Part shown: positions 9,845 to 47,637 of the stretch, in pieces
Layout: each line of letters begins with the position of its first letter
How positions within the stretch are numbered: position 1 is the first letter of the stretch
NCBI GenBank assembly: GCA_963666285.1
Contig: OY762711.1
Length of the DNA: 64,000 bases
Direction: 5' to 3' (one strand)
Origin: Sedimentisphaerales bacterium
GTDB taxonomy: Bacteria > Planctomycetota > Phycisphaerae > Sedimentisphaerales > SM23-30
The notes under the pieces: model-generated
What the model was told of the DNA's origin: nothing
Database searches by the model: none
What the model saw: only the letters and a program-made list of their open reading frames with translations
Translations under genes and position numbers: made by a program

Positions 9845-11040
9845 CTTCGCTTCTCTCTTCTCCCTCTTCTCGGTGTCCATCTGCGTGAATCTGGTTCGGC
9901 TTTTCGGCATAGCCGTTTAAAACAAACTATCTGCGAATGCGGTCACCTCCATTACACGTTTTATTATACCCTTTACACTTTTAAAGCCTATGTCTTGACA
10001 CTCAACCGTTACCCATGTCCTGAACGAATTGGTTTAAACCTCTCACTTCTCGCTTCTTTCTTCTAACTCTTCTCATCCTTCAGATGCCGCAATTTTGATT
10101 GAACTTTACCTACGCGTTAGCCTTAAAACAAACCGTGAGCGACAGCGAATTATTCCTGATGTCAACGTACATCAGGACACCTCAATTCTTCACCCGCTTG
10201 CGACATGCGAAGCATACTTAGTTCTTCGTTCTTCACTCAATTATCTGGTTGGCCCAATTTTAAAAATAACAACTTACGTCAACCAACTCTCAAATCCGCG
10301 ATTCGCCGCAACTCTTTCCTGAACCCGCCATGCATTCGTTCTTATATCCCCGCACTCTTCTATTTCATTCCGTTTTTTAACCTCTCCTTCACCCGCCACT
10401 CTCACTTATAAATCAATTAGCCTCGGCCAAGCCGTTACCTTCCCTAATACCAAATACCCAACACCTAATACCTTCTTTCCCCCTGGGAACGCTGAGCACA
10501 AGCTCGGCACACTATTTAAAACAGGTCGCGTAAGCGACACCTTTTACCTCTTACTTTTTACCTGCCTTCCCATCTCCGCTTCGTCCCCGTCCGTATACCG
10601 CCGCACCCATTCAACGTTCCGCCGTATACTGCCCGCGGCCCGCAATTCACCGCCGCTCAAATCCGTACCCCTTTTCACCGCCGTACACCCGCCGCGCTGC
10701 CCCGTATATATGCCGCACTCCCTCCGTCCCCCATCAATCTGCCGCGAGCGTCAGCGAGCAACCTTCCCTGGCACCTGAAACCAGATCCCTGACCCCTGAT
10801 TTTCTCGAAAAAATCACCGCGTTTTTACAACCACCAAAACGCGAAAATCTAAAATCTTCAAAAATTTTATCCACTTTACCATCAACACCTTACAATCTTC
10901 CACACCAACTATCCCGCCCAATAAATCAGCGCACTTTCGACATACCGTCCAATTGTAGAGAGCTAATAAAAAATGAGAACCAACAAAAATCAGCTCTCGC
11001 TAAAACATAACAACGACGAAAACTTCGTCTTTAACATAAA
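9845..11040. repeat. Non-coding mosaic repeat, copy A
   Basis: 9910..10541 aligns with the reverse complement of 47152..47637; 10542..11040 with the reverse complement of 44953..45460. Confidence 0.9.
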
Positions 11041-11108
11041 AAAGTGATCTATAAAAATCGAATATTGAAGCTTGTTTTTATGCTGTGCTATACCGTATCA
11101 TTTAGCGT

Positions 11109-11900
11109 ATGACAAACAAGATAACAATCATGGGCAGCGGCACAAGTATGGGCGTACCAAGGGTAGGCTGCCATTGCGAGGTATGCACCAGTACCGACCC
11201 TCGCGATAAACGTTCACGTAGCAGTAGTTTAGTAGAGATCAACGGCAAACGAATTCTTATCGACACTCCGCCCGAACTTAGACTGCAATGCCTGGCAAAC
11301 AATATCCACAATATCGATGCATGTCTCATAACGCACGCTCACGCCGACCATATCATGGGCATGGACGATCTTCGTGGATTTACTAAATCTCAAAAGAAGC
11401 CGCTTGACGTTTGGGTTAGTTCTCTCCATTATGAAAATGTTCAAAGGATATTCGGCTATACCGACGTCAAATACACTGGCGGCAATAAAGACCTGCCTCA
11501 ACTGATATTCCGGCAATTTCCACCTGACAGACTATTCCAGATCTCTGACATCGACATCGTTCCCATTGAGCTCGACCATGTGACAGTTAACAACGTTGGT
11601 AAGATGAAATCTATCGGGTTCCGGTTTGGCGATCTGGGCTATTGCACCGATCTCAGCGGCATGACCGATTCTCAAATCGAGATTCTGAAAGGCGTTAAAG
11701 TACTAATCTTAGGCGTGTTACGGCATAAACCCCATCCCGCACACCTTAATACCGACCAGGCAATACAAATCAGCAGGGCTATCGGTGCCGAACGGACATT
11801 CTTTACCCATCTCGGCCATAAGATTCTCCACGAACGTGAGGAGCGGCTGCTACCGGACAATATCCGGATAGCTTATGACGGGCTTACTATCGAGTGGTAA
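11109..11900 (+). CDS. MBL-fold metallo-hydrolase, PhnP-like
   Basis: GSGTSMGVP, C.CEVC, THAHADH..G.DDLR, THLGH, AYDG. Confidence 0.88.
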   Translation: MTNKITIMGSGTSMGVPRVGCHCEVCTSTDPRDKRSRSSSLVEINGKRILIDTPPELRLQCLANNIHNIDACLITHAHADHIMGMDDLRGFTKSQKKPLDVWVSSLHYENVQRIFGYTDVKYTGGNKDLPQLIFRQFPPDRLFQISDIDIVPIELDHVTVNNVGKMKSIGFRFGDLGYCTDLSGMTDSQIEILKGVKVLILGVLRHKPHPAHLNTDQAIQISRAIGAERTFFTHLGHKILHEREERLLPDNIRIAYDGLTIEW

Positions 11901-11943
11901 GACCAGCACGATTCCATACTTGCCTTATTATTCAAAGAAAAAA

Positions 11944-11972
11944 ACAACCTGCCAAAATATATGACAGGTTGT
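11944..11972. terminator. Probable terminator hairpin between convergent genes
   Basis: ACAACCTG...CAGGTTGT, preceded by an A run. Confidence 0.55.
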
Positions 11973-12094
11973 AATAAAGTTTCATGACGCGAAGCTATTA
12001 AAATAAGCTGTGAGCCGTCAGGTGAACACCGCAGCTCTTCACTCTTAGTTTTTCACTCTTCACTTCTTATCAAACTGACCTCGGTTAGTTTGAG

Positions 12095-14494
12095 CTAGTT
12101 ACAATAACTTTCCGGATAATAACCGCAGTCCAGCCAGCTGGAGGCTATCACTGACATGTCTTCCAGGTTGACCAGACAGTCGCCGGTTATATCTCCCAAT
12201 GGCGTTGAACTGCATGTTGCACAAGTAGCTATCACTGGCAGTATCAACTCTGGCGTATCGGGATCGTTACTGTAAATTGTTATATTGTCGGAATATGATA
12301 TTTCACTTTCACAAACCGCACTGCAATCACTGGCCAGGCATATTGTTAATGTCGAATTCGGCAGTATCTCTATAGGAAACTGCATATCGATAGTTAGCCA
12401 TGCAGGCAGGTTGATGCCGCTGATGCTGAGTGTTTGGCCGCCTGTGTTATTGATCGATATTGACTCGCCGTCGCATGGGTATGCGGCTTCGAGTGCACTT
12501 TCAAGGTTGATAAGTGGGGTATAGATATCCGATTTGGGGTCATAAGTCATGGTTCCGGTATCAACCAGCAGGTTTCTTATTTCGCTTGGACTGAGGTAAC
12601 TACCGGTATTTTGGTATGAATACTGCTGGATGACGGCGACTACGCCCGCAACATAAGGTGTTGCGGCAGATGTACCCGCGAAACCTGTTGTATAGTCAGA
12701 GGAGTTATCATAACCGCCAGAACCGGTTATGTCTGTTGTTGTTACAGAATACGATGGGGCCAGTACATCTAGAATATCTGCTGAGTTTGAATAGCAGTTA
12801 ACTTCGCCGGATATCGCGTTGGTATCGTAGCATATATAGCCGGTATCGCATTCGGGATAGGATTCGGCGATACATGATGTGGAATCTATGCACCAGCCGC
12901 CAGATGATAATGACCTGTCATAAACTGCTCCAACCGAGATAATGGTACTTATACACGCTGGTTCGGATATCGAATCACAGTAGCCTTCATTTCCTGATGC
13001 GGCAACGATGGTAATACCTGCATTTGTGGCGTTACCGGCTGCTGTTGTAAGCAGCACAGTGCTATTGTCGCAGATATTACTGAACTTGCTGCCGCCGAGA
13101 CTGACGCTGATGACCATGATCGGATTGTCTTGATCGGCATATTGATTCGTAACGCACCAGTCCCAGGATGCGGCAATTGAATCATCATACATATATTCTT
13201 CAGAGCCTTCGGTTACTTTTAACGCATATAGCTTCGCTCCTGGAGCAACTCCGCCTATATAGTCGCCGTAGCTGCCGATGAAGCCGGCGGCAATACCCGC
13301 ACAGGCGGTGCCATGTGCTTCGTAATATGGATAAGGATCTGAATCATCATCTCCGAAGTCATAACCGCCTATAACCTTGTCATTTGGAAAACTTGCACCG
13401 CCCAGCATTGGGTGAGTATAGTCGATGCCGGTATCACAGATTGCGATAGATATGCCGCTGCCGGTAGTGGCGGAACGGCTGTCGAAAGCGTTAATAAGCG
13501 GCAGTCCCTGCGCGGTAAAGCATTTATACTTTCTGGCTGGTTCGATTGAAGCTATATTATCTTCTGCCAAAAGATCGTTGAGCTGATCGACTGTAACATT
13601 CGCAGAAAACGATGGAATATTATCATATTCGTGATGTGTTTTGAAACTTTTTTTGCCTTTATACTTGTCTAGTACAACATCGCGAACCTGTTTGACTTTT
13701 GAGCGAAATGCTTTTGTGCTTTTACCTTTTACCAGGGCAGCTTTTGTATCAGCAACAAGTGATTCTTTGAGATTTACTATCACTCTTGCTGTTCCCTGTT
13801 CATCAAACATTTCATTTATTGCTTCTTTGTCGATTAACCGGGAAGTTGATTCCTTTTGTTGGGTACTGCTTGACGCTGCCAGGGTAGAAACCGATTGACT
13901 ATCGCTGCAGTCAATGTGAAGTTCGCTGGTACTAAGTGAGATATCTGGTTCAGCATTAGCATAGTAGACTTTTAAGGTCATTTCATTTAGCTGGCCGGTA
14001 TCGTCCTCCAATACGTCTCTAAATTGGTAAAACCATACCTGGTTTGGGTCATCGCCGGTAAATGTGGTAGTATTTGTAATAGTTTCATCAATATCTTCAA
14101 CGTTATTATCTAAATCTGAACTGTGGATAGACCATAGTTTTGTATCATTTTCTAGCTGGATGTCGAGATCGCCGGTGTAGGTATGAGTGTATGAATGAGA
14201 TATTTCTACTTTCGTAACAGCTTTTCCTACTGGAATTATTCCATTTGGGTCACAGCTGATTATGGTCCAGTTAAGATTTTCATCTGGTATATAAATTGGC
14301 CCGGTATATGTCCAGGTTGCAACGTATTCGATTGCTTGCGGTGTGATTTTACCCGCCAGGTTGACCGAACCGGTATGATTTTCTACGAGATGAATCTCTG
14401 GCTGGTTCAAAATGATAGTATCAGCTCGGCTGGAGGTGGAAATGGATATAGAGACAAATAACGCAAGTAATATGAAGAATAGGCTTTTATTCAT
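12095..14494 (-). CDS. Secreted S8 subtilase with N-terminal P-domain, I9-like propeptide, Ig-like and dockerin-like domains
   Basis: Triad CDTGID / HGTACAG / GTSAATP; AASGNEG; HTYTGDLDIQL..DTGQL; GDITGDCLVNLED. Confidence 0.9.
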   Translation of the reverse strand: MNKSLFFILLALFVSISISTSSRADTIILNQPEIHLVENHTGSVNLAGKITPQAIEYVATWTYTGPIYIPDENLNWTIISCDPNGIIPVGKAVTKVEISHSYTHTYTGDLDIQLENDTKLWSIHSSDLDNNVEDIDETITNTTTFTGDDPNQVWFYQFRDVLEDDTGQLNEMTLKVYYANAEPDISLSTSELHIDCSDSQSVSTLAASSSTQQKESTSRLIDKEAINEMFDEQGTARVIVNLKESLVADTKAALVKGKSTKAFRSKVKQVRDVVLDKYKGKKSFKTHHEYDNIPSFSANVTVDQLNDLLAEDNIASIEPARKYKCFTAQGLPLINAFDSRSATTGSGISIAICDTGIDYTHPMLGGASFPNDKVIGGYDFGDDDSDPYPYYEAHGTACAGIAAGFIGSYGDYIGGVAPGAKLYALKVTEGSEEYMYDDSIAASWDWCVTNQYADQDNPIMVISVSLGGSKFSNICDNSTVLLTTAAGNATNAGITIVAASGNEGYCDSISEPACISTIISVGAVYDRSLSSGGWCIDSTSCIAESYPECDTGYICYDTNAISGEVNCYSNSADILDVLAPSYSVTTTDITGSGGYDNSSDYTTGFAGTSAATPYVAGVVAVIQQYSYQNTGSYLSPSEIRNLLVDTGTMTYDPKSDIYTPLINLESALEAAYPCDGESISINNTGGQTLSISGINLPAWLTIDMQFPIEILPNSTLTICLASDCSAVCESEISYSDNITIYSNDPDTPELILPVIATCATCSSTPLGDITGDCLVNLEDMSVIASSWLDCGYYPESYCN

Positions 14495-14784
14495 TAATTT
14501 CTCCTCATTTTTCTTTTCTTTTCATTTCCTTGGAACTCAATTATATTGATATAATTTGATTATATCTAAATAGTTATATCATTCCAAAGATAAATAATCA
14601 AATTGGCTATTTGTATGAATAATATCGGTGTTTTCGATGATGGACTTTGGAGTATTTTTTATAATTCGTTTTAATTATTGTATTTATGGTCTGTTGTGCC
14701 GGTTGTTAAAAAGGGGGGAGTCTACTTGAGGAATTGGCCGAATTTTGTAATATGTGGCGTAAGTTATTAATTTGTATGCCCATT

Positions 14785-15774
14785 TTATTCGGCAAGTATC
14801 TGGTCTATGAGTTTTAGTTCATCATGAGAGAACTCTATATTGTTTAGAGCAGCGACGTTGTCCAATATTTGTTGTGAGCTGCTGGCTCCGATCAAAACAG
14901 AGGTTACCGCCGGCTCACGGGCAACCCAAGCGAGAGCCATTTGTGCCATAGTCTGGCTGCGTTTTGTTGCTAAGTCGTTTAGCTTTGTTACCTTACCGAG
15001 CAGCTCCTGGGTGATCTGCTCTCTTTTGAGAAATTCACTTTTTGTGGCTCGTGACCCGTCTGGTATGCCCTTGAGGTATTTGTCGGTTAGCATGCCGCCG
15101 GCCAGGGGCGAAAAAGCGATGATTCCCATGCCAAGGTCCTGGGCTATGTCGAAGACATCATCGTCTTTGAATGGGTGTATCAGCATTGAATGTCGCAGCT
15201 GCTCAACGATACAAGGCACATTTCTTTCTGTTAGAATTGCGTGCATATCACGTGCATCTTCTTTATAGTATTTTGATATGCCGATATATAGTGCTTTGCC
15301 GGAGCGAACTATCTGCTCCAGTGCTTCAGCTGTTTCTTCCATAGGTGTTTCAGGGGTAGGGCGATGATGGTAAAAAATGTCGACATAGTCAAGCCCCATA
15401 CGTTTTAGGCTCTGGTTTAGACTGCTGATGAGGTATTTTTTGCTGCCGCCGTCTCCATATGGCCCCGGCCACATATAATGCCCGGCTTTGGTGGCGATAC
15501 AGAGTTCATCGCGATATTCTGCCAGGTCTTGTTTGAGTATCTGACCGAAGGTGGTTTCTGCTGCTCCCGGCGGTGGGCCGTAATTATTAGCCAGGTCAAT
15601 GTGGTTTATGCCGTGGTCAAAAGCGGTAAAAATCATATTACGGCAATTTTCAAAGTCGTCTTCAGGGCCGAAATTATGCCAGAGCCCAAGTGAAATTGCC
15701 GAAATTTGCAGGCCTGATTGACCGCAAAAGTTGTATTGCATATTATCGTATCGATTGCTATTTGGTGTGTGCAT
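14785..15774 (-). CDS. yghZ: Aldo/keto reductase, L-glyceraldehyde-3-phosphate reductase family
   Basis: SLGLWHNFG, DLANNYGPPPG, WPGPYGDGGSKKYL, DIFYHHRP. Confidence 0.85.
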   Translation of the reverse strand: MHTPNSNRYDNMQYNFCGQSGLQISAISLGLWHNFGPEDDFENCRNMIFTAFDHGINHIDLANNYGPPPGAAETTFGQILKQDLAEYRDELCIATKAGHYMWPGPYGDGGSKKYLISSLNQSLKRMGLDYVDIFYHHRPTPETPMEETAEALEQIVRSGKALYIGISKYYKEDARDMHAILTERNVPCIVEQLRHSMLIHPFKDDDVFDIAQDLGMGIIAFSPLAGGMLTDKYLKGIPDGSRATKSEFLKREQITQELLGKVTKLNDLATKRSQTMAQMALAWVAREPAVTSVLIGASSSQQILDNVAALNNIEFSHDELKLIDQILAE

Positions 15775-15782
15775 GATAGTAC

Positions 15783-17573
15783 TTAAATCTTGATGTTAGA
15801 GTTATCTTTGTTCCCCATTTTCAATAGACTTTTGATAATTATTATAGTGTCTGGGGAGCCATTTGAATAGTTAAAACCAGAAACTGTCGATATTTGCTGA
15901 TTTTTCACAAGTTCGGGAGCTATTTTATTATAAGCTTCCTGTGAGATTATAAGAATGGCATTTTGAGTGGAGTTAAACCATTTGACAGCCTGTTTGCTGT
16001 TTAGCGGTTCAATATGACGTGCGATGTAGAAGTTTAATGAAGGTTCTTTATAGGAGCAGTATCCTACCGGATCAGAGGCGTCAGAGTTATTAATAACGGC
16101 TTTGGCAACTTGTGGTGATATTTTAGTTGAGTCGATAGCAGGCAATACGACAATCAGGATGACTGGAACAACAACAATTAGGGTGTTAACTAATGACCGG
16201 GTACTGTTTTGGGTGTCTTCTCGTAATTGGTATTTATTGATTTTGGTACCACCGATAAGCAATAATATGCCTGCTAAGGGGCCGGCGATATATGACAGTA
16301 AGCCGGATTTTATGATAAATGGCAGGGCGATAAGTGCAAGAGCAAAAGCACTATTAATAATGCCAAAGAACCATATCCCGCCGCGTAGCCATTTTCTGTC
16401 CCGATTTGAAAGATTAACGTTATTTCTATCCAGCAGTGCGGCTGTAATGATAGCCAGTGCCGGAAATGAAAGTATAATATAGTGCGGCAGTTTAGTTGCT
16501 ATCAGGGTCATTAGAATAATAACAGGCATGATCCATCCCAGAACTAGCAGTTTCCCGGTAGAACCATTAAGTCGTGAGCCGAGCGAAGCAGAAATTGCCG
16601 CCGGCAGGTGCAGTGTCCATGGGAAGAAAATAAGAGGAATTACGACAAAATAATATGGCAGATACAGGAAGAAATTTCCGCCATGCGATTCCATTGCCGA
16701 AGTGGACCTGCCTATGACGTGCTTACCTATACCCATCCGGTAAAATTCGCCGTTAGTAGCGTTGTTAGCCGGTATTGCCCAGAGTAGAAATATACCGGCT
16801 GAAATAACCATTGCCAGTAAGGTCGGCCCAAAAATAGGCCAGAATCTTATGCCTTGCCTGCGTTTTAATAATAAGGTCGTCATGATTACTAGTGCTGGCA
16901 GATAGCCAACCGGCCCTTTAGCTAGAAGGGCAAAGGCAAACGCTGCTGCCATGTATATTGTGTCAACCGGTGAGACTTTTCCGCGGTCAAGAGAGCGGTA
17001 GAAAATCATAATAACTGCCGTCATTGCAGGCAACAATATAGAGTCTGCGGTTGCAAAGGTTCCGATTGTGAAAATCAGCAGGTTTGAAGCAAGAATTCCG
17101 ATAGCAATATATGCCGTGCGGGTACAGAATAGCCGTCTTGCGATAAAAAAAGTGAACAAACAGGTGAAAGCAGTCCCAAATGCGGCAATAAACCGTACGG
17201 GAAATGAGTGTGGTCCCAAAAAACTGAAAATTCGGACCGGTACCGACATGAGCCAGTATATCATGATAGGTTTGTCAGGTCTAAGTTCACCATTAAAAGT
17301 AGGATAGAGATAGTTGCCGGTCTCGACCATTTCATATGCGGCACTCGCAAAACGCGGCTCATCGCGGTCCCAGAGTGTCGATCTGGCAGCGGCAAACAGA
17401 TAAATGACAATGATAAATATAAGTATCAGAAAAAGTATTTTATATTGAGATACGCAGTTGATTGTTTCTTTATTACTCACGTTTGTTAAATTGTTTGGTG
17501 TATATTTTGCGAATGAATTTATCAGAGTGGATTTTAATATAATTAAGTTAAGTGTAAAAGTGAAAAAATGCAT
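15783..17573 (-). CDS. ArnT/GT83-like membrane glycosyltransferase (start uncertain)
   Basis: LWDRDEPRF, DKP..YW, LAKGPVG, FFPW, TKLPHYI; many TM helices. Confidence 0.85.
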   Translation of the reverse strand: MHFFTFTLNLIILKSTLINSFAKYTPNNLTNVSNKETINCVSQYKILFLILIFIIVIYLFAAARSTLWDRDEPRFASAAYEMVETGNYLYPTFNGELRPDKPIMIYWLMSVPVRIFSFLGPHSFPVRFIAAFGTAFTCLFTFFIARRLFCTRTAYIAIGILASNLLIFTIGTFATADSILLPAMTAVIMIFYRSLDRGKVSPVDTIYMAAAFAFALLAKGPVGYLPALVIMTTLLLKRRQGIRFWPIFGPTLLAMVISAGIFLLWAIPANNATNGEFYRMGIGKHVIGRSTSAMESHGGNFFLYLPYYFVVIPLIFFPWTLHLPAAISASLGSRLNGSTGKLLVLGWIMPVIILMTLIATKLPHYIILSFPALAIITAALLDRNNVNLSNRDRKWLRGGIWFFGIINSAFALALIALPFIIKSGLLSYIAGPLAGILLLIGGTKINKYQLREDTQNSTRSLVNTLIVVVPVILIVVLPAIDSTKISPQVAKAVINNSDASDPVGYCSYKEPSLNFYIARHIEPLNSKQAVKWFNSTQNAILIISQEAYNKIAPELVKNQQISTVSGFNYSNGSPDTIIIIKSLLKMGNKDNSNIKI

Positions 17574-17813
17574 GCATAGTTGTTTATTTTGAATAGTTTA
17601 TGGAGAAAATTTTAAATTTCTCTTTAGTAAGGGTTGCAGATTTGGTATATTGAATTTTAAGTGAATATTTAATTGAGAATTTAATATGGAGAAGAAGGGT
17701 ATATGGTTTCTAATTCTTTTGTAATTATTTGTTAAATAGACGCTTATGTATGTGTGTGCATAGTTGTTTCTAATGTTTAATTCTAATATTATCTTAAAAA
17801 TGGAGTTACGAAA

Positions 17814-18887
17814 ATGAAGAAAATTGCTGGAATTGTGATTGTTTTGCTTGCATTAGCGATAAGTTCTGAAGCAGCGGTGAAATATGAACTGGTTGACCTG
17901 GGTGTCCTGGATGGTTATCAATATAGCTGTGCAAAAGGGATAAATGAAAATGGTCAGGTGGTAGGTTATTGTAGAAATAGCGAAAGTGAAACAGCTTTTG
18001 CATTTGTCTGGGATAGTGAAAATGGTATGGTAGCTCTTGGTGATCTGGGCGGCGGAGTAAGTGCAGCAAATGCAATAAACAATAACGGTCAGATAGTCGG
18101 AGTAAGTTCAAATGCGGATGGTAATTATGAAGCGTTTCTCTGGGACAGTGTGAACGGTATGGTTGGCCTGGGTGATTTTGGTGGTAATGATAGTAGAGCT
18201 GTTGATATAAATGACTATGGAGTAGTAGTTGGAAGCAGTGTCAATTTGTCAGGTCAGACGGAAGGTTTTGTCTATGATCCGGCTGAAGGCATGCAGGTAT
18301 TTAATTCTTTTGGTGGAAGCCATACCGAGGTATGGGCAATTAATAACTCAGGACAGATTACAGGTGTTGCTAGAAATTCCAGTGGCGTTATGACAGCTTA
18401 TACTTTTGATAGTGAGAGTGGTTTGACCGATCTTGGACATCTTGGTGGATACGTAAGTTATGGAAATGATATTAACGAAAATGGTACAGTTGTTGGCTGG
18501 AGCCATAATTTTACTGATGGACTTGAAGGGTTTGTTTATGAGAATTCTGATATGGATGGAATAGGCATAATAGGTTCAACTAGTAATTTATTTTCAATAA
18601 ATGACAATGGCCAGGGAGTTGGGTATGATTTGGTTAATGGAGTTGATGAGAGAGCACTATTTTATGATAGCGAATTGGGTTTAGTATATCTTGATGACCT
18701 TATTGATCCAACTTTAGGATGGCAATTAAATATTGCCTGGGATAATAATAATTCCGGTATGATAGTCGGCTATGGAACAAATGATCTTGGTATCGAACAT
18801 GCATTTCTGCTAACGCCAGTACCGGAGCCGGGAACAATATGCCTGATCGGTTTTGGCGGTCTGGCACTGCTGAGGAGAAAGAAATAA
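17814..18887 (+). CDS. PEP-CTERM protein with HAF-type extracellular repeats
   Basis: Signal peptide; repeated A..IN..GQ.VG..AF.W...LG; ends VPEPGT-TM-RRKK. Confidence 0.9.
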   Translation: MKKIAGIVIVLLALAISSEAAVKYELVDLGVLDGYQYSCAKGINENGQVVGYCRNSESETAFAFVWDSENGMVALGDLGGGVSAANAINNNGQIVGVSSNADGNYEAFLWDSVNGMVGLGDFGGNDSRAVDINDYGVVVGSSVNLSGQTEGFVYDPAEGMQVFNSFGGSHTEVWAINNSGQITGVARNSSGVMTAYTFDSESGLTDLGHLGGYVSYGNDINENGTVVGWSHNFTDGLEGFVYENSDMDGIGIIGSTSNLFSINDNGQGVGYDLVNGVDERALFYDSELGLVYLDDLIDPTLGWQLNIAWDNNNSGMIVGYGTNDLGIEHAFLLTPVPEPGTICLIGFGGLALLRRKK

Positions 18888-23276: not shown

Positions 23277-23285
23277 AATAGAATA

Positions 23286-32474: not shown

Positions 32475-33140
32475 TTCATCCTTCAGGAGCCGTTTCACAA
32501 CACCTTTCTGGGCTGCCCATAAAACAAAAATAACAACTTACGAATCTCAGTAAATTTTTTTCTCCTCCGCATCTACGCCGTATTATCTCGTCCATCTACG
32601 ATTGCCAATTATCTCCAACTTTGTGTCAGGCAGCACATAATAACTTCGCCATTAGGCGACACCTACACTTTGGGAACGCTGAGCTGAGCACTAGCTAGGC
32701 ACAATCGACAACAACCGTTTAAAATAAGTCGCGTAGCGACACCATATATATCAAATGATGTGCCAGGGTGTGCAGTACTTATTTTCTATCCTGGCAGCGG
32801 TCGCTAATTGCTGGTAGCTGAATTATTTCTACTATCTTATACTTGATACTTAAAGCAACCTTGCCGTACATACACCATTATCGTGTTTGAGCTTCCGTAC
32901 CTGTTTGATGTTCCGCCGTGTGCAGTCCGTTTATCGCAATTCACCTCCGTTCAAATCCATATTCTTTTTGTCTCCGTCGGTCCGCCGTGCTGACCTCGTA
33001 TATATTCCGCATATCTCCCATTACCCATGTCCTGAACGAACCAGTGACACCGCAATTGTTCACCCGCTTGCGACATGCGAAGCTTGGCAAATCAGAATGA
33101 TTTACCCTTTTGAATTGTCAATTTCATTCGTCTCCGAGTA
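32475..33140. repeat. Non-coding mosaic repeat, diverged and permuted copy C
   Basis: Shares TCATCCTTCAG, AAAAATAACAACTTAC, GGGAACGCTGAGC, GTCGCGTAGCGACACC, TTACCCATGTCCTGAACGAA, TTCACCCGCTTGCGACATGCGAAGC with copies A/B. Confidence 0.82.
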
Positions 33141-33516
33141 GTTCGACTGGAGAGCTCTAGTCAAGGTTTTGTCCAGTAGGCATTTTATTTTTCTGTCACC
33201 CTGTAATTCAAATATTGAGCAAAATACCTTTCCTCTTAACTGCCTAGCATTTTTATGTTTGTGAAAAATAATGTTTGGCTTGTTTGGAAACTAGATTTCT
33301 ATAATTAGATGATTGTGCATTAAACCTCGATGAAATAGCGTAAAACGATGTTTTGTATCATACATACTGCCTGATTTTGGGATGCACACCTTTTTGAGGA
33401 TGAAATTATTTTTTATTTCTTGCAAATATGTTACATTTTTGTAAAATTACTTATTTGTCACTTTGTTAAATTGTTTTTGTAGATATTTGTAACTCGACAG
33501 GGGATGTTGTACAATA

Positions 33517-38722: not shown

Positions 38723-38940
38723 ATAATATTAAGTAAGTACAGATTCTTACGCAGGTTATGAATAGAATCATGAAAACTATTCTCTCAAAATGATTTTCCT
38801 GCATTTTAATTTGCTTATGGCATATGCTTAGCGGGTGTTTCAAAGAAAAACCTGTTTTTTTTTTGGTCTAGCTGTGAATTATATGCGTATTATCATTTAA
38901 GCTAGTGTTAAATTATGCGAAATCGAAGTGAGGTGCAATA

Positions 38941-40794: not shown

Positions 40795-40817
40795 TGATAA
40801 TAAGGGTTTAAAGAGAT

Positions 40818-40849
40818 AAAGCGGATGTTAAGCGGCGTCCGCTTTTTTT
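40818..40849 (+). terminator. Intrinsic terminator
   Basis: AAAGCGGATG...CGTCCGCTTT then T run. Confidence 0.75.
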
Positions 40850-40873
40850 GTTTATCGGCGGTAAAAGCTCATC

Positions 40874-40902
40874 TTGACTATGGCAGTATTTTTTGTTATC
40901 AT
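40874..40902 (+). promoter_or_regulatory. Sigma70 promoter for the trpS cluster
   Basis: TTGACT-N17-TATCAT with extended TG. Confidence 0.6.
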
Positions 40903-41059
40903 ATCTTGCTTGTAGCAAATGTACAACTGTCTATTTTATAAAGAGTTAAGTTAGTACAATTTGCTTAAGACTCGTCCGGCAGCTTGTGATTTGAGCAAAA
41001 AAGACTGAAAAACGTATATCACATCCGTGTCGGCATTATTCATAGTACAGGTTAGAGAT

Positions 41060-42034
41060 ATGGCAAAACGAATATTATCAGGAATTCAGCCTTCGGGCAA
41101 ACTGCATTTAGGGAATTATTTTGGCGCTATCAGCCAATTTGTGGACTATCAGAACCAGGGTGATGAGTGCTTTTATTTCATTGCGGATTATCATGCGATG
41201 ACAACTGTTAAAGATCCGGCGATGCTTAGAGAGTATGTAAATGAGGTCGCATTGACATATCTGGCATTTGGCATAGACCCGGAAAAAGTGGCGTTTTACC
41301 GACAGAGCGATGTGCCTGAGGTTACAGAGCTGAGCTGGATTTTTTCCTGCCTGATTCCTAACGGTCTTCTCGAACGCTGCGTAAGCTATAAGGATAAGAT
41401 AGCCCAGGGACTGACCCCGAACCATGGCTTATTCTATTATCCATGTTTGCAGGCTGCTGATATCCTGATTACCGGTTGTGATATTGTGCCTGTCGGTCAG
41501 GACCAGAAACAGCATGTAGAGGTTACCCGCGATATAGCCGAGAAATTCAATAACCAGTATGGTGAAGTGCTGACAATTCCTGAGCCTCGTATCCGGGAGT
41601 CTACGGCTATTGTTCCTGGTGTTGATGGCCGTAAGATGTCAAAGAGCTATGACAATACTATTCCGCTGATCGAAGCGGCAGGGAAGTGCAAGAAACGCAT
41701 TATGAAGGTAGTGACAGATTCTACCCCGGTAGAAGATCCGAAAGACCCGGAAAAGTGTAATGTGTTTGCCTTACTGAAGCTGTTTTGCAATGAAACCGAA
41801 CTGGCTGAATGGCGTGACAGATATACTAGCGGCGGGATGGGTTATGGCGAAGCCAAGAAGGCCCTAGCCGAGATGGTAAACAATTTCCTTGAGCCTGCCC
41901 GTGCAAGATATGAAGAGCTGGTAAATGATATGTCTTATGTTGAAGATGTTCTGTCCGATGGTGCCAGGAAGGCGCATGTCACGACAGATGCTCTGATGGA
42001 AAAAGTAAGGTCGGCGACCGGGCTGAGGAAGTAA
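41060..42034 (+). CDS. trpS: Tryptophan--tRNA ligase
   Basis: SGIQPSGKLHLGNY, QAADIL, VPVGQDQ.QH, KMSKS. Confidence 0.97.
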   Translation: MAKRILSGIQPSGKLHLGNYFGAISQFVDYQNQGDECFYFIADYHAMTTVKDPAMLREYVNEVALTYLAFGIDPEKVAFYRQSDVPEVTELSWIFSCLIPNGLLERCVSYKDKIAQGLTPNHGLFYYPCLQAADILITGCDIVPVGQDQKQHVEVTRDIAEKFNNQYGEVLTIPEPRIRESTAIVPGVDGRKMSKSYDNTIPLIEAAGKCKKRIMKVVTDSTPVEDPKDPEKCNVFALLKLFCNETELAEWRDRYTSGGMGYGEAKKALAEMVNNFLEPARARYEELVNDMSYVEDVLSDGARKAHVTTDALMEKVRSATGLRK

Positions 42035-42094
42035 AAAATAAAGTGCTCTACGGATGCCAGATTAGAATAGGCAAGATGCAAGAATTCAAGATAT

Positions 42095-43213
42095 ATGACA
42101 GATTATAGAGTAAAATTAGAGGTTTATAACGGTCCGATGGACCTGCTGCTGTATCTTATCAAGCGAGATGAGATAGATATCTATGATTTACCGGTGGCAA
42201 CGATCACATCTCAGTACATGGAATATATGAATCTCATGGAAGAGCTGGACGTAGATCTAGCCGGTGAATTCCTGGTTATGGCGGCGACCCTGATGGAACT
42301 TAAGAGCCTGATGGTTATTCCGCGTGATGAGATTGAGGGAGAAGAGGGTGAAGATGATCCTACAGACCCACGAATGGAATTGATTCATCAGCTGCTGGAG
42401 TATAAGCGGTTCAAAGATGCGGCCGGTATGCTGGAAGACGCCGCAGAGGAGCGGGCAGGTCGTTTCCATCGTCCACTGGTTGACCTTGAGCGGGTAAAGA
42501 AAGAGCTGAAATCCGAGCAGGAACTGGATATGGAATCGGTTCAGATCTGGGATCTGATGGATGCGTTTACCCGTCTAATGAAGGCAACGCTGGCTAATAA
42601 GGCTACTCATAATGTTATCCATGATGAAACCCCGATTGATATCTATGAGACAAGGATATTGGAAAGGGCGCAAAAAGCTAACCCACTGAAGTTTGAAGCG
42701 GTATTTGAACGTGCCTCTAACCGTGAAGAGATGGTTGGAATGTTTTTGGCTATTTTGGAGCTTATGCGTCACCGGCTGGTGAAAATTGAGCAGGAAAAAG
42801 CATTTGGAGATATTTATATATTCCCGCAGACCGAAATGGATGCCAAGCAGGCGGTATTGAATACCATTTCCGGTGCAAATATCCAGGCCGAGGAAGAAGA
42901 ACTGCTCAATGAAGTTGGAATAGCCAAGCCGGAAGAAGAAAAACTGTTTTCAGAGACTATCAGTATAACAGAGGATCTGGGCGGTTTTAGCGAAGATGTG
43001 AGGTTCAAGTCTGAAGAGGAAGCCGAACAAGCCGAAGAAGAGGCAGTAGCAGAAGATACCGAGTCTGAATTTGAAGATGAAGATCAGGTAGAGTTTGATA
43101 TGGATGAGGTTGAAGAGATCGATATTGAAGAGCTTGATAGCCGGGTCCTGGAAGAGAAAAAGGCCGAATTGACGGAAAATGATGATACCGAGCTTGATTT
43201 GCCGAAAGAGTGA
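42095..43213 (+). CDS. scpA: Segregation/condensation protein A with acidic tail
   Basis: GPMDLLLYLI, EFLVMAATL..KS, FLAILEL, Q..FG.I. Confidence 0.92.
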   Translation: MTDYRVKLEVYNGPMDLLLYLIKRDEIDIYDLPVATITSQYMEYMNLMEELDVDLAGEFLVMAATLMELKSLMVIPRDEIEGEEGEDDPTDPRMELIHQLLEYKRFKDAAGMLEDAAEERAGRFHRPLVDLERVKKELKSEQELDMESVQIWDLMDAFTRLMKATLANKATHNVIHDETPIDIYETRILERAQKANPLKFEAVFERASNREEMVGMFLAILELMRHRLVKIEQEKAFGDIYIFPQTEMDAKQAVLNTISGANIQAEEEELLNEVGIAKPEEEKLFSETISITEDLGGFSEDVRFKSEEEAEQAEEEAVAEDTESEFEDEDQVEFDMDEVEEIDIEELDSRVLEEKKAELTENDDTELDLPKE

Positions 43214-43296
43214 TCACTAGAATCCCCTGACAGGCAGATTCTGGTTTATCCAGCTGCAGACAGAACTCACCTTAAAAACGCCAGGAATATAGTTAA

Positions 43297-44082
43297 ATGA
43301 GTATTTCGATAATCAATTGGAATGTAAATGGTATTCGTGCAATCCATCGAAAGGGTTTTAGCGAATGGTTTGATGAGATTAATGCGGATATTATCTGCTT
43401 ACAGGAGATAAAGGCCAAGCCGGAGCAGTTTCCCAAGGATCTATTAGAGAAAGAGGGATATACTGTTCATATTAACTCCGCGGAGCGGCCGGGCTATAGC
43501 GGAACGGCAGTGTGGACCAGGCTGGAGCCTAAGAAGGTAGAGTTTGGGTTCGGGGTAGAAAAGTTCGATTGTGAGGGCCGTGTGATCGGTCTCTGTTTCG
43601 ATGATTTCGAGGTTTATACGATATATTTTCCCAATGGCGGTAATGAAACCGAAGACGGGAGCAGTTTTGTCAGGCTTGATTATAAGATGGAGTTTTATGA
43701 TGAGTTCCTCAAGTATATGAACAAGCGTAAGAAGACCGGAAAGGATATTATCTTTACCGGTGATGTTAATACCGCACATAAGCCGATCGATCTATCTCGT
43801 CCGAAACAGAACGAAAAAAATACCGGTTTTTTGCCTGTCGAAAGGGAGTGGATTGATAAGGTTATTGATAATGGTTATGTCGATGTATTTCGTGAGTTTG
43901 ACAAGGAGCCGGACAGGTATACATGGTGGGACTATAAGACCCGTTCGCGGAGCCGGAATGTGGGCTGGAGGATCGATTATTTCTTTGCCACCAAAAAGAG
44001 CATGACCAGAATCAAGAACTGTAAGCATTTGACCGAGGTTATGGGTTCGGACCATTGTCCGCTGCAGCTTATTTTGGATTAG
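43297..44082 (+). CDS. xth: Exodeoxyribonuclease III
   Basis: WNVNGIRA, LQEIK, GDVNTAH, GWRIDY, GSDHCP. Confidence 0.95.
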   Translation: MSISIINWNVNGIRAIHRKGFSEWFDEINADIICLQEIKAKPEQFPKDLLEKEGYTVHINSAERPGYSGTAVWTRLEPKKVEFGFGVEKFDCEGRVIGLCFDDFEVYTIYFPNGGNETEDGSSFVRLDYKMEFYDEFLKYMNKRKKTGKDIIFTGDVNTAHKPIDLSRPKQNEKNTGFLPVEREWIDKVIDNGYVDVFREFDKEPDRYTWWDYKTRSRSRNVGWRIDYFFATKKSMTRIKNCKHLTEVMGSDHCPLQLILD

Positions 44083-44105
44083 ATCATTTACCTTGAGAAA
44101 ATATT

Positions 44106-44789
44106 ATGGCAAAAGCAAAAACATCGAAAGAGTTTAAGCCGACGAAAAAAGATGTCAGTTCTGCAAAGGACCGGATTATGCCTATTTTAAAGGCTTTGGC
44201 GAAAGATTATCCGGATGCCTCTTGTGAGTTGAATTATAAGACGCCGCTGCAGCTTATGGTAGCGACAATTCTATCGGCACAATGTACGGATAAGCGGGTA
44301 AATGAGGTAACCAAGGATCTGTTCAAGAAGTATAAGAATGCCGGTGATTTTGCGGATGCCGGTGAAGAAGAACTGGGTGAGGATATTAAGAGTACCGGTT
44401 TCTTTCGCAATAAGGCGAAAAATATAATCGCGGCATGTAAGGCGATAGTCGCAGAGCATAAAGGGAAAGTGCCCGGTAATATGGAAGAGCTGGTGAAGCT
44501 GCCGGGGGTAGGGCGTAAGACCGCGAATGTGATACTTGGCAATGCTTTTGGTGTGCCTGGGATAACGACAGATACACATCTTATCCGGTTGAGCAGACTT
44601 TTGGGTTTATCGGTGAATTCTGATCCGGTTAAGCTGGAACATGACCTTATGGAGATTGTGCCTGAGAAAGACTGGACGATATTCAGCCATCGGATAATCT
44701 GGCATGGCAGGAGAGTGTGTAATGCCCGTAAGCCTGATTGTGATAAATGTTCGCTGACGGGGAATTGCTGCTATTTCAACAAGGCATAG
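44106..44789 (+). CDS. nth: Endonuclease III
   Basis: LSAQCTD, LPGVGRKTANV, DTH, C-X6-C-X2-C-X5-C. Confidence 0.95.
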   Translation: MAKAKTSKEFKPTKKDVSSAKDRIMPILKALAKDYPDASCELNYKTPLQLMVATILSAQCTDKRVNEVTKDLFKKYKNAGDFADAGEEELGEDIKSTGFFRNKAKNIIAACKAIVAEHKGKVPGNMEELVKLPGVGRKTANVILGNAFGVPGITTDTHLIRLSRLLGLSVNSDPVKLEHDLMEIVPEKDWTIFSHRIIWHGRRVCNARKPDCDKCSLTGNCCYFNKA

Positions 44790-44828
44790 CCCTTTGATCA
44801 GACCTCAGTAGGCGAGCTGCTTTGGAGA

Positions 44829-45472
44829 CCAAGCAAAGCTTGGAACAGACCTCGCTTCGCTCGGCGACGAATTGAGATTGTCAATTCTAGAGGGCAAATC
44901 AGAATGATTTGCCAAGGCGTGATACAAATATTCAGTTTTTCAAAGAGCAAAATTTATGTTTAAGACGAAAATTTCGTCGTTGTTATGTTTTATCGAGAGC
45001 TGATTTTTATTGGTTCTCTTTTTTTGTTAGCTCTCTACTATCGGATGGTATGTCGAAAGTGCGCTGATTTTTTGGGCGGGATGGTTGGTTTGGAAGTTTG
45101 TAAAGTGTTGGGAGTAAACGGGATAATAATTTTAAAGATTTTAGATTTTCGCAATTTGGTGGTTGTAAAAACGAGATGATTTTTTCGAGAAAATCAGGGG
45201 TCAGGGATCTGGTTTCAGGTGCCAGGGAAGGTTGCTCGCTACCGCTCGCGGCCGATTGATGGGTAACGGGAGGTGTGCGGAAAGGTAACGAGGCATCGCG
45301 GCGGGTGGACGGCGGCGAAAAGGCAAATGGATTTGAGCGGCGGGGAATTGCGGGCTGCGGGCAGTATACGGCGGAACGTTGAATGGGTGCGGCGGTATAC
45401 GGACGGGAACGAAGCGGAGATGGGAAGGCAGGTAAAAAGTAAGAGGTAAGAGGTAAGAGTTGAGGTGTCCGC
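44829..45472. repeat. Non-coding mosaic repeat, copy B left part
   Basis: 44953..45460 is the reverse complement of 10542..11040; 44860..44918 matches 33082..33138. Confidence 0.88.
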
Positions 45473-45538
45473 TGTCTGGTCCTGTGATAAGTTGTCACAT
45501 TATAGATTTAATGTTTTAACAAATAACAGGAGACAACA

Positions 45539-45958
45539 ATGTTGGTAAGTAAACGAACTTATAATCGCTACAGCGAAGCCTTTAAATTACAGGTGGTAAA
45601 TGATCTTGAATCTGGTAAGCTAAGCAGTATTTATGAGGCTAATTCCCGCTATGGGATTTCTGGTACAACAACAGTAAAGAGTTGGCTAAGAAAATATGGC
45701 CGTAACCATTTGATACCAAAGGTGATACGCGTGGAAAAACTAGATGAACAAGATCATGTAAAGAAGTTAGAATCAGAGATTAAGCAGCTTAAAGAAGCGT
45801 TAGCAGACAGCCATATAGAGAATATTGTAAGTGAAGCCAGGTTTCAGGTTATTTGTAAAGAATACGGGCTGGATCCCGAGGAGTATAAAAAAAAAGTCGA
45901 TACCAAACGGTTCAACAAGCGTCCGAGGCAACCGTTGAAAAGAAAGAGGAAAAAATAG
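45539..45958 (+). CDS. IS3-family OrfA (HTH)
   Basis: RYSEAFKLQVV...YGI..TVKSWLRKYG; AGGAG RBS. Confidence 0.9.
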   Translation: MLVSKRTYNRYSEAFKLQVVNDLESGKLSSIYEANSRYGISGTTTVKSWLRKYGRNHLIPKVIRVEKLDEQDHVKKLESEIKQLKEALADSHIENIVSEARFQVICKEYGLDPEEYKKKVDTKRFNKRPRQPLKRKRKK

Positions 45959-45987
45959 CGATAACTTCCTTATGCAAAGCTGTTGGC

Positions 45988-46773
45988 ATGAGTCGTCAGA
46001 ATTATTATAAATCACATAAAGTTCGGCGCAGGCGGCACTATGAAAAAGACCTGATAATATCTTTGGCCAGGCTGGAAAGATCATTGCAGCCTGAGATGGG
46101 TTGCAGAAAGGTTTTGAAGCGTATAAAGCCCAAACTGGCAAAAGCCGGTATTAGTATAGGGCGAGATAGATTTTATGAAACGATGTCAGAAGCAGATATG
46201 TTGATAGAGCGTAAAAAGCGAAGTGTGACAACGACAGACAGTCGTCATAACTTTAAGACTTATAAGAATATACTGAAAGATGAAGAGCTTACAGGAGCCA
46301 ATCAGGCCCTGGTAAGTGATATAACGTACATATATACAGATGAAGGATTTATGTATCTGTCGTTGATAATGGATGCATTTAGTCGCAAGATAGTTGGCTA
46401 TGACTGTAGTGATAGTTTGGAAGCAGAAGGTTGTTTGCGTGCATTAACAAAGGCGATAAAGCAATTGCCCAAAGGTAGTAATACGATACATCATTCAGAT
46501 CGTGGCAGTCAGTATTGCTGCCATAGATATATAGATAAGCTTAAAAGAAATGGGCTGCGAGTTAGTATGACCGAAGATAATCATTGTTATGAGAATGCCC
46601 AGGCCGAGAGGTTAAACGGTATATTGAAGCACGAGTATGGATTGAAGAATACGTTTAAGAAAAAAGCTCATGTTCATGCTGCGGTTAAACAGGCGATAGA
46701 ACTGTATAATACCTGTCGTCCACATTTTGCTTTGGGATATCGTGTGCCTGAGGAAGTGCATATGGCGGCGTGA
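45988..46773 (+). CDS. IS3-family OrfB (DDE), -1 frame open from 45892
   Basis: Same protein as 77..862. Confidence 0.93.
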   Translation: MSRQNYYKSHKVRRRRHYEKDLIISLARLERSLQPEMGCRKVLKRIKPKLAKAGISIGRDRFYETMSEADMLIERKKRSVTTTDSRHNFKTYKNILKDEELTGANQALVSDITYIYTDEGFMYLSLIMDAFSRKIVGYDCSDSLEAEGCLRALTKAIKQLPKGSNTIHHSDRGSQYCCHRYIDKLKRNGLRVSMTEDNHCYENAQAERLNGILKHEYGLKNTFKKKAHVHAAVKQAIELYNTCRPHFALGYRVPEEVHMAA

Positions 46774-46884
46774 TATATTCCTCCGTTCCGGTCGCCCTTC
46801 GGGCTCCCTGCACTACGGAATATATCATCAAAAAACAATAGTAAATAGAAACGGAAAGTGACAACTTTAAATCAGGACTTGACA

Positions 46885-47637
46885 CGCTTCGCGGACGGCT
46901 TATTTTAAGCGGCTGGCGCCTTAAAATAAAGAGAACCACTGATGAACACCGATGCACACTGATAAAGAAAGAAATGGAAAGCGTTTCTAAAGTATCAAGT
47001 ATAAAGGATGAAGGATAAGAAATCAAGACACTACCAGCAACGAGCGAGCAGCCAAGCTGCTAGAGATTAGAGCAGATGACAGTGGAACAGGAGGAAGATA
47101 AATACGTGCTACGCACTCTGGCACATCATTGGACTTGGCCAATGATGTGAAGGTGTCGCTGACGCGACCTGTTTAAATAATGTGCCGAGCTTGTGCTCAG
47201 CGTTTCCAGGAGTGAAGGAGAGGTTAAAAAACGAATTGAAATTGAAGGGTGAGGGGATATAAGAAAGACTGTATGGTGGCTTGTGGTGGTAGTGCGGCGG
47301 AGAGGGGATTTTGCGTGAATTGATGTAAGTTGTTATTTTTGGATTGTGGGCGGACCAGATAATTGAGTGAAGAACGAAGAACTAAGAGTGAAGAATTGAG
47401 GTGTTCGCCTAACGGCTCACGGTTTGTTATAAGGCTGTCGCGTAGGTAAAGTTCAATCAAAATTGCGGCACCTGAAGGATGAGAAGAGTTAGAAGAAAGA
47501 GGCGAGAAGAGAGAGTCTAAAACCGGTTCGTTCAGGACATGGGTAACGGTTGAGTGTCAAGACATAGGCATTAAAAGTGTAAAGTGTAAAATAAAAAGAG
47601 TAAAGAATGTGTCGCTTCGCGATCTATTTTAAACGGC
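46885..47637. repeat. Non-coding mosaic repeat, copy B right part
   Basis: Reverse complement of 9910..10541 plus an extra ~270-bp module. Confidence 0.88.

Follow-up and report, generated by a model that had tools for sequence, protein, structure and literature searches.

The window analysed here, a 64,000-nucleotide stretch of DNA from a Sedimentisphaerales bacterium (contig OY762711.1 of assembly GCA_963666285.1), contains several related kilobase-sized segments that do not resemble genes, which raises the question of what kind of element they represent and how their copies became a patchwork. A sequence-only reading of the window had proposed a non-autonomous platform that is copied as a unit, collects recognition sites of other mobile elements and acts as a landing pad, a decoy array or a long non-coding RNA.

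The element within the window

Self-comparison of the window by BLAST and the module scores agreed with the initial description of copies A and B as mutually inverted, of copy C as diverged and of additional fragments. Positions 10539-11066 matched 44927-45454 (88%) and 9912-10392 matched 47212-47637 (76%), both inverted between A and B, copy C matched in pieces of 73-95% identity, and 49433-49513 and 11987-12064 matched too. Copy A (9865..11065, minus strand) has the order CORE-17-14-06-01-03-09-04-11-05-07, and its 483-bp core (10582..11065, minus strand) begins with a sharp 5' end, ATATT, at 11065, with two hairpins close to this end and a GC-rich block at the opposite end. Module m01 (GTAAGTnnTTATTT ... 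GGGCGGACCAGA), which lies at 10243..10277 on the minus strand of copy A, is present in 29 of the 30 full copies of the genome. Copy B (44800..47693, plus strand), with its core at 44928..45411 and module m17 at 47163..47212 (both plus strand), is split by an IS3-family element (45473..46884, plus strand) that sits in a GTCCGC/GCGGAC palindrome module, is bordered by a 3-bp CGC duplication and is a passenger rather than a part of the element. Copy C (about 32475..33170, minus strand) retains, beside its modules, no more than the 3' third of the core, at 32881-33057, and adjoins a 5'-truncated ISL3 gene. A core-less string of modules m10, m08 and m00 lies between hypothetical genes at 49176..49512 (plus strand), while two direct copies of m41 (48014-48042 and 48603-48629, spanning 48014..48629 on the plus strand) enclose a small hypothetical gene at 48086-48601. 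Solo modules were found at 11987..12068 (minus strand; a 7-bp tract and palindrome frame) and at 61129..61160 (plus strand; a palindrome, scored as a module at 61140-61160). Finally, a solo right end of an integrase-core IS (9682..9775, minus strand), which carries a motif related to the core 5' end, adjoins copy A.

Copy number and module architecture

A genome-wide search revealed 30 full copies of the non-coding core, 71-92% identical, each forming with a differently ordered module array a mosaic element of 1-2.6 kb, and about 150 solo modules in addition to the approximately 30 arrays. The 45 modules were defined de novo and each was modelled as an HMM; these models gave 0-82 matches each in the chromosome and none in the reversed chromosome, except for one model with two. 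Logan contigs of run X1, which is possibly the source of the assembly itself, matched several pieces of copy A letter for letter at single-copy depth, and the patchwork is therefore unlikely to be an assembly artefact. The depth of the core pieces in run X3, 1000-2500-fold, was considered as a sign of amplification and rejected, as the unevenness of this depth and one chimeric contig were signs of an amplified library. The dispersed, non-coding, one-way mosaic element is thus real and larger than first described. That copies are flanked by hypothetical genes is correct for the window and not for the genome as a whole, where the neighbours of the core are mixed and the genes lie in both orientations.

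The module order was distinct in each of the 30 copies, with the modules co-occurring on one shared backbone with exchangeable slots. Their polarity is strict (509 on the same strand vs 12 on the opposite one), and a constant frame, for example GG[TA]GT-hairpin-TTTAAA, holds at least six interchangeable hairpin types with strand counts of 69 vs 7. An internal direct repeat of at least 20 bp was present in 17/30 copies and a non-local inverted repeat in 2/30. The strand that carries the modules is G-rich and C-poor; a C/G ratio of at least 1.5 was reached in 1% of its windows vs 70% of those on the other strand. The genome has a rho gene, and the C-poor strand may be tolerated in transcription units because it would present no Rho loading site; in 104/153 cases, a solo cluster has the sense orientation of the gene upstream of it. 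This argument is weakened for the cores, since 17 lie on the same strand as the upstream gene and 13 on the opposite one, without an orientation bias. A bias towards the leading replication strand was rejected as weak (19/30 cores, counted by hand, and 90/153 solo modules). The IHF-site-like motifs of the initial reading fared poorly: no exact match to the consensus of E. coli was obtained, there was no enrichment at one or two mismatches, and ATCAACACCTTAC, which had been cited as IHF-like, is the allele of one copy rather than a consensus. A derivation of m01 from a tRNA-Val attachment site was also discarded, as the resemblance is short and the sequences 3' of the tRNA-Val genes differ.

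The claim that the element has no credible ORF was supported. A 163-aa ORF in copy B had no Pfam match and no homologue among proteins of 89-286 aa, the synonymous fractions were flat in all six frames, and there was no codon bias. A structured long non-coding RNA, in contrast, found no support, as Rfam yielded no match in the window at the gathering score and the two core hairpins showed no both-sided covariation. Hairpin 2 varies only by changes that are G-U-compatible on the purine strand, while on the other strand they disrupt the pairing. A global RNA fold was rejected; local palindromes account for the negative folding z-scores that the pyrimidine strand gave.

Exchange between copies and preferred insertion

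Linkage between core sites in the 30 copies fell from an r2 of 0.51 at separations of up to 5 bp to 0.03 beyond 100 bp, the identities of 120-bp core blocks were uncorrelated (-0.16 to 0.06), and a PHI-like score of 0.46 lay below the permuted minimum of 0.67. The core alleles are thus shuffled on a scale under approximately 120 bp, which indicates that the copies exchange short patches; no effect of distance on this exchange was found. The patchwork likely arose because the copies and the solo modules constantly recombine over short patches.

The proposed role as a landing pad was supported for some IS families. Seven of the 11 copies of IS3A and 7/9 copies of IS110A lie in modules, compared with 36/600 random intergenic points that were used as the control, and IS110A inserts at a fixed position, CAACCACG^AAA. 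In a strict test, no module matches were found at the insertions of the IS4-like family (0/8), IS3B (0/4), IS110B (0/4) or the intron (0/11). An IS or intron is present inside 9/30 element copies. The element is a preferred insertion target of two IS families, one IS3 and one IS110.

With moderate confidence, we consider the whole to be a one-way mosaic element of approximately 30 copies into which two IS families insert by preference, and which short-patch recombination with the roughly 150 solo modules keeps as a patchwork. Its modules would be scars of small repeat-flanked genes (four-helix-bundle, GxxExxY or RAYT) or of IS ends that were looped out between direct repeats, and they may enter or swap arrays by gene conversion or loop-in at the shared frames, a route by which their orientation would be kept.

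Related elements in other genomes

Elements of a similar layout with an unrelated core sequence were found in the two genomes of other genera that were analysed, G010 and G020, and, by eye, in a third genus (G018). The PHI-like test was marginal for the look-alike elements of G010 (0.589 vs a permuted minimum of 0.581) and negative for those of G020 (18 sites). The core itself had no homologue in 40 relatives, and in 300 genomes of the order, where two candidates were scored per genome and sensitivity was limited accordingly, only matches of 20-48 bp occurred. A scan of GTDB with the core pattern gave three isolated matches in unrelated taxa, which were taken as chance, and no match was obtained in two metagenome scans, viral contigs or plasmids; the searched collections may leave out records very near the genome of the window.

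Spread of the core

One end of the element is sharp (ATATT) and the other is ragged. In about half of the copies, the same ATATT end abuts unrelated flanks, the sequence past ATATT being variable, and homologous exchange alone is therefore insufficient. No terminal inverted repeats were detected (best end-to-end match of 3-9 bp, mode 5, vs a control mean of 5.1), with the exception of a truncated core at C1:3076594 that has two inverted core ends, nor was there a target duplication, as a copy's own flanks share 4.17 bp vs 4.05 bp for mismatched pairs at boundaries that are approximate. Since, in addition, no pair of cores was more than 92% identical, the suggestion that the element is copied as a unit found no support. 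To arrive at new, non-homologous sites with a precise end and no target duplication, the core would depend on an enzyme that acts in trans, and a single-strand step of the HUH or RT type seems likeliest. The search for a partner gave none. The core HMM identified no autonomous parent in the genome, the IS91-type Y2 transposase (PF04986) had no match in this genome (G000) and is present in 3/25 family genomes, and RAYT-like genes occur in 25/25 family genomes and thus do not track the element. Neither does the presence of an RT (nine RT matches and five motif matches in G017) or the tyrosine recombinase gene content. An integron would have a tyrosine integrase beside its attI/attC cassette array, and none of the 17 chromosomal PF00589 matches is as close as 20 kb to any full core. 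A dif/Xer site at the core end was rejected because of its varying spacer length. One-ended rolling-circle elements (IS91/ISCR) and IS200/605 derivatives have a hairpin close to a single precise end, vary at the opposite end and make no target duplication. The element shares these features, with a hairpin 35 bp from the core end, but differs in having no Y2 transposase and no fixed target motif past its end, such as the target tetranucleotide at the ori end of IS91/ISCR elements, and the ends of the three IS200 copies in the genome are unrelated to the core.

Retro-copying, in which a group II intron RT would reverse-transcribe transcripts of the copies in trans and create mosaics by template switching, is unlikely, even though it accords with the one-strand polarity and mosaicism, the one sharp and one ragged end, and the strand on which the changes in hairpin 2 are G-U-compatible. 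An ORF-less intron derivative with eight copies at 99.6-100% identity implies that RT activity in trans exists here, an intron 77% identical to that of this genome occurs in G018, and one four-helix-bundle protein has a weak, below-cut-off match to the DGR Avd family. Against it stand the missing both-sided covariation and stable global fold, RT contents that do not follow the element, and the lack of a near-identical, recent pair. Moreover, group II RTs favour their own intron RNA. It is similarly doubtful that the elements of several genera of this bacterial family form a new class of non-autonomous mobile platforms with independent origins, in which a lineage-specific core would move through a single-stranded, probably RNA, intermediate and gather the flanks of four-helix-bundle, GxxExxY and RAYT genes by template switching; such a platform would be where an undescribed mobility system of these orphan repeat-flanked genes docks, its machinery being Avd-like four-helix-bundle proteins together with an RT in trans.

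Origin of the modules and the remaining explanations

Several modules are flanks or ends of mobile DNA, as had been predicted. The tracts and palindromes of the modules recur on the sense strand of the four-helix-bundle genes of this genome, and three of these eight genes are flanked by direct repeats of 23-48 bp; direct copies of the m17 palindrome lie on both sides of a RAYT-type gene, in genome G001 only; and in four other genomes, integrase-core IS elements have a 3' non-coding end that matches the first 28-29 bp of the core. The expectation that candidate trans-acting genes would carry the same flanks in this genome was correct for the four-helix-bundle genes only, as no GxxExxY genes were found and the RAYT-like gene (score 62.7, cut-off 80) has flanks without modules. 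Among the flanks of 47 GxxExxY and four-helix-bundle genes of relatives, the module HMMs gave a score on only three sequences, and an origin of the modules from such flanks therefore rests mostly on a style seen by eye.

The IS match of the core end could also mean that the core is a decayed, lost IS or gene and that repeats and IS elements piled up passively in tolerant intergenic DNA. A core-less array fused to a truncated copy of an integrase-core IS transposase, the position of copy C beside an ISL3 remnant, and one frame of the pyrimidine strand that is stop-free for at least 133 codons in 12/30 copies (95th percentile of shuffled sequences, 123) point in this direction. We consider this very unlikely, as only about 30 of the 483 bp match an IS while the core cannot be aligned along its length, no autonomous parent, codon signal or protein homologue was found, and a pile-up predicts neither a shared backbone with a polarity of 509:12 nor elements in other genera that repeat the layout with unrelated cores. 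The element is thus unlikely to be a decayed part of one known IS or gene.

We attach still less probability to a cassette that is kept by the host as a long RNA, or as an outward promoter and boxA antiterminator that tunes its neighbours. The 190 invariant columns among the 483 of the 30-copy alignment, the boxA-like opposite strand of the first 28-29 bp, which in some copies resembles the host rRNA-leader motif, and the position of the copy A core, which ends about 40 bp ahead of a gene start, would fit such a role, but most copies have a degenerate boxA-like motif, copy A has about as many promoter-like matches as expected by chance (3 vs 2.4) and Rfam is silent. Furthermore, same-genus relatives lack the element at the two window loci. 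Inspection by eye of the DNA downstream of the endonuclease III gene (23 relatives) and upstream of the hydrolase gene (15 relatives) showed solo repeats in a few cases and no core-sized element. A descent from the neighbouring promoter region was rejected, as there was no homology in three same-genus genomes. Arrays selected by the host as decoys that soak up IS and intron insertions otherwise hitting genes are barely probable, since, despite the occupied copies, the IS3A and IS110A preference and one element inserted in 5/20 look-alike copies of G020, the preference is explained equally by IS adaptation to safe repeats, as excerpts of PMC1525189 describe for REPs, and neither the IS4-like nor the IS3B family makes use of the arrays.

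Relation to known repeat systems

The preferred reading, a one-way mosaic maintained by short-patch exchange, has its closest parallels in BIMEs and NIMEs. In the excerpted texts of PMC1525189 and PMC3333891, BIMEs are intergenic, locus-variable mosaics of palindromes and linkers that are targeted by IS elements, and their variability is proposed to result from single-strand cleavage and recombination. The present element is likewise an IS-targeted intergenic palindrome mosaic, but whereas a BIME is a short unit in which a single REP type alternates in orientation and for which a cognate RAYT exists, it spans 1-2.6 kb, combines many unrelated palindromes in one direction with a fixed core, and has no cognate RAYT. 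The NIMEs of Neisseria are described in part of PMC1797815 as long, dynamic arrays with a constant short frame and variable spacers that hold IS elements and are presumed substrates of recombination; that portion of the 2007 paper reports NIMEs and such long mosaic arrays only in Neisseria. The arrays studied here also vary by recombination, between copies of one genome, but none of the 45 modules is a 20-bp symmetric site of the dRS3 type, the frame is directional, the arrays rest on a conserved core and the modules trace to mobile-gene flanks. The element works like a BIME or NIME and, given these differences from both, is a new variant that is kilobase-sized and one-way. Bacterial MITEs and BOX elements are non-coding and multi-copy, BOX being a modular tandem array (excerpts of PMC3184786 and PMC2229807), and the element is, presumably, also non-autonomous; unlike them, it has no terminal inverted repeats or target duplication, is several times longer and has shuffled alleles. 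Those IS3 and IS110 elements that target REPs occupy, like IS110A, a fixed position in a host repeat, but they describe the passengers rather than the platform, and the targets here are GxxExxY-style and four-helix-bundle-style flanks instead of classical REPs.

In the literature that was covered, mostly at the level of titles and the beginnings of abstracts and with subscription journals largely outside its scope, neither the element nor the repeat flanks of the four-helix-bundle and GxxExxY genes were described. Few bacterial repeat families are both non-coding and of kilobase length, and the present one contributes a fixed core, a strict one-strand polarity, a near-complete shuffling of alleles and a reappearance in other genera with unrelated sequence. 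It offers a defined test system for the movement of repeat-flanked four-helix-bundle and GxxExxY genes, for the speed of short-patch exchange among dispersed bacterial repeats and for how IS3 and IS110 elements came to share a target. The m01 motif GTAAGTnnTTATTT also marks the look-alike elements of other genera, and many of its matches in G018 lie at contig ends; such elements may explain contig breaks in assemblies of this bacterial family.

Results and Discussion

In the source genome (G000; 6.35 Mb, 41% GC, four contigs), whose chromosome contig C1 holds the window at C1:736001-800000, the mosaic element belongs to a large family. The gene content tentatively points to Phycisphaerae (Planctomycetota). 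Copies A (9865-11065), B (44800-47693) and C (32475-33170) as well as the fragments that had been claimed by the sequence-only reading were all present in the window, as BLAST and module annotation revealed. Its "at least three copies" was correct in that the element is multi-copy but fell short in number: the right half of copy A gave 35 BLAST matches in the genome, 30 of which were at least 380 bp long, and an HMM built from the 30 cores added 13 shorter matches, six with E < 0.001 (copy C among them), which puts the family at about 30 complete members and a number of remnants. Along the purine-rich strand, a copy consists of optional 5' modules, a 483-bp core and an array of short repeated modules, and its multi-copy extent is 1.0-2.6 kb when IS elements are subtracted. 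The strand asymmetry that had been described is real, with 30% G and 15% C on this strand. A de novo search yielded 45 module models, 33 of which were taken for annotation. The module order was different in all 30 copies, on a common backbone, while 509 modules lay on the core's strand vs 12 on the opposite one, six of the latter coming from one head-to-head array and six from one self-complementary module. A constant frame, GG[TA]GT-hairpin-TTTAAA, accommodated at least six types of hairpin, split 69 vs 7 between the strands, and 17 of the 30 copies had an exact internal direct repeat of at least 20 bp. Outside the cores, 153 module clusters were found, and in 104 the orientation is sense with respect to the gene upstream. 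Elements at C1:1254781, 2428155 and 252475 carry other GC-rich blocks that run through the same GGGC(A/G/T)GACCAGA junction into the standard modules; these are possible older core families.

Pairwise identity among the 30 cores was 71-92% (median 83%), and 169 sites had a minor allele in at least three copies. Four-gamete conflicts stood at 0.24 within 5 bp and increased to 0.80 beyond 100 bp; over the same distances, allele linkage (r2) fell from 0.51 to 0.03. Moreover, the identities of four 120-bp core blocks were uncorrelated with each other, and the PHI-like score, 0.46, lay below the lowest permuted value, 0.67; after the central swapped segment was removed, the figures were 0.59 vs 0.69. 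Chromosomal distance had no effect on the identity between copies. Because core alleles of several bases move jointly between copies, we infer that patch exchange fits better than recurrent mutation. The IS copies of this genome reach 100% identity, so the cores, judged by their divergence, are not a recent burst.

The anatomy, polarity, allele shuffling, IS preference and recurrence of the element are direct observations. DNA-level exchange together with a putative single-strand mobiliser would explain them, a reading for and against which we see the case as evenly balanced. The modules would be scars left by looped-out repeat-flanked genes and IS ends, exchange at shared frames would spread and reorder them with their orientation kept, and the C-poor strand would likely escape Rho. 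C-rich windows made up 1% on the module strand vs 70% on the other, and a rho gene is present in the genome (rho-like genes lie at C1:1463841 and 5946911, one above and one below the family cut-off). It is doubtful that a new mobility system, working on single strands and serving repeat-flanked orphan genes, lies behind the element as its visible part. Template switching by a reverse transcriptase (RT) is an unlikely source of the shuffled copies. Across genomes, the gene content of RT, Y2 transposase, RAYT and tyrosine recombinase did not track the element.

Nine four-helix-bundle genes scored above the cut-off in G000, and their flanks carried 7-bp tracts on the sense strand, several with the same palindrome frame (8 of 9 genes examined). 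The idea that trans-acting genes carry the same flanks held for these genes and for a RAYT-type gene in the comparison genome G001, which has module m17 on both sides (1/29 loci). No GxxExxY genes were found in G000; 20 of 24 relatives have them, flanked, by eye, by imperfect palindromes in the style of m19, m25 and m30; the module HMMs gave only three flank matches across 27 GxxExxY and 20 four-helix-bundle genes of the relatives. One module, presumably an IS481-type end, was found again in G019 and G024. At C1:45283-46070, tandem near-identical four-helix-bundle genes with direct repeats between them are followed by a third, partial copy.

ATATT was the start of 28 of the 30 cores, preceded by unique DNA in about half of them and by other modules in the remainder, and the far end was ragged. 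Target duplications were not found (flank sharing was 4.17 vs 4.05 bp), nor were terminal inverted repeats. The first 28-29 bp of the core match the 3' non-coding end of integrase-core IS elements in G051, G156, G251 and G294, where a transposase reading frame is visible at three of the four loci. In G000, too, a related transposase gene is present, along with solo right ends, two of which are in the window. That the element is a passive relic is quite improbable. Read on the opposite strand, the core's end motif resembles boxA as well as the motif of the host's rRNA leader; it is degenerate in most copies. The two solo right ends of the window (5713-5800 and 9682-9775), in direct orientation, enclose an IS3 element together with several consecutive hypothetical genes. 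Additionally, the truncated core at C1:3076594-3076840 has the end motif at both borders, in inverted orientation, and so is MITE-like, and at C1:1650622-1651166 a core-less array runs straight into an integrase-core transposase gene that is truncated.

The lack of a credible ORF was confirmed: synonymous fractions were 0.26-0.30 across all six frames of the core copies and also flat per block, and the 163-aa ORF of copy B had neither a protein family nor a homologue. A remote coding origin of the core may still be considered since one frame is stop-free over at least 133 codons in 12 of the 30 copies. An Rfam scan of the window gave no match. Two hairpins lie downstream of the core's 5' end motif; in the second (22 of 30 copies analysed), all variation is compatible with G-U pairs when read on the purine strand, but changes on both sides of a pair were not seen and shuffled controls did just as well. 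A host regulatory cassette or RNA is slightly less probable still than a relic.

Empty insertion sites were rebuilt and scored for modules vs 600 random intergenic points. Insertions lay inside modules in 7 of 11 cases for IS3A and 7 of 9 for IS110A vs 36 of the 600 points, and 13 of these 14 shared the module's orientation. No module match was found at the rebuilt sites of a family that we take to be IS4-like (0/8), IS3B (0/4), IS110B (0/4) or the group II intron family (0/11); by eye, several of the sites used by IS110B and the intron are tracts or palindromes in the style of the modules. The proposed landing pad is supported for IS3A and IS110A, and a selected decoy is the least probable reading of all. 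A 725-bp derivative of a group II intron, lacking an ORF, has eight near-identical copies (C1:1407255, 2351430, 3631583, 3634538, 4146168, 4935977, 5267085 and 5274238), inserted after TATGA, often at gene starts; it terminates in a ribosome-binding site and ATG, from which the gene that it interrupts appears to be restarted. Two complete group II introns (C1:910721-912650 and 5395338-5397267) are located after 7-bp tracts and start with GAGCG, the usual start being GTGCG; an intron 77% identical to them is present in G018.

The core was not found outside G000 in relatives, order genomes, GTDB, metagenomes, viral contigs or plasmids. Of 151 genomes, eight (G000 among them) had 14-202 copies of the m01 motif GTAAGTBVTTRTTT, and none of the rest had more than nine. 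Twenty loci each, chosen by this motif in G010 and G020 (most assemblies being fragmented), had multi-copy, G>C-skewed, non-coding cores with a median identity of 80-81% and a maximum of 91%, an identity filter keeping 17 and 12 loci, respectively. Same-strand matches prevailed among them (1208:26 in G010, 414:36 in G020), 7-bp tracts lay downstream of the cores at 12/20 and 3/20 loci, and one transposase element was inserted in 5/20 G020 loci. The test for recombination gave a marginal result in G010 and a negative one in G020, and none of the look-alike cores aligned to the G000 core. Loci in G018 and G012 look similar by eye, whereas those in G004 and G126 are ambiguous. G018 has 202 motif copies, many at contig ends, and at loci L163 and L188 (G018) and L170-L189 (G010) the look-alike elements carry tandem 32-33-bp repeats of GTAAGTGCTTATTT at their 5' end.

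The element works similarly to BIME and NIME arrays, yet it fails their defining features as described in PMC1525189, PMC3333891 and PMC1797815, and those of MITEs (PMC3184786 and PMC2229807); PMC3372372 further informed the comparison. The defining features of IS91, IS200/605 derivatives and known ncRNAs were likewise failed. Literature searches turned up no description of it. The element is real and apparently undescribed, a variant of intergenic mosaic elements that is kilobase-sized and runs one way.

Elsewhere in G000, C1:5303000-5316000 is a Mu-like transposable prophage region with a 664-aa integrase-core protein, whose neighbours we assume to be ATPase-like and Gam-like. Contigs C2, C3 and C4 (65.6-66.6 kb each), none of which has a full core, are possibly phages or plasmids; a tyrosine recombinase match was found on two contigs, and C4 has one too.
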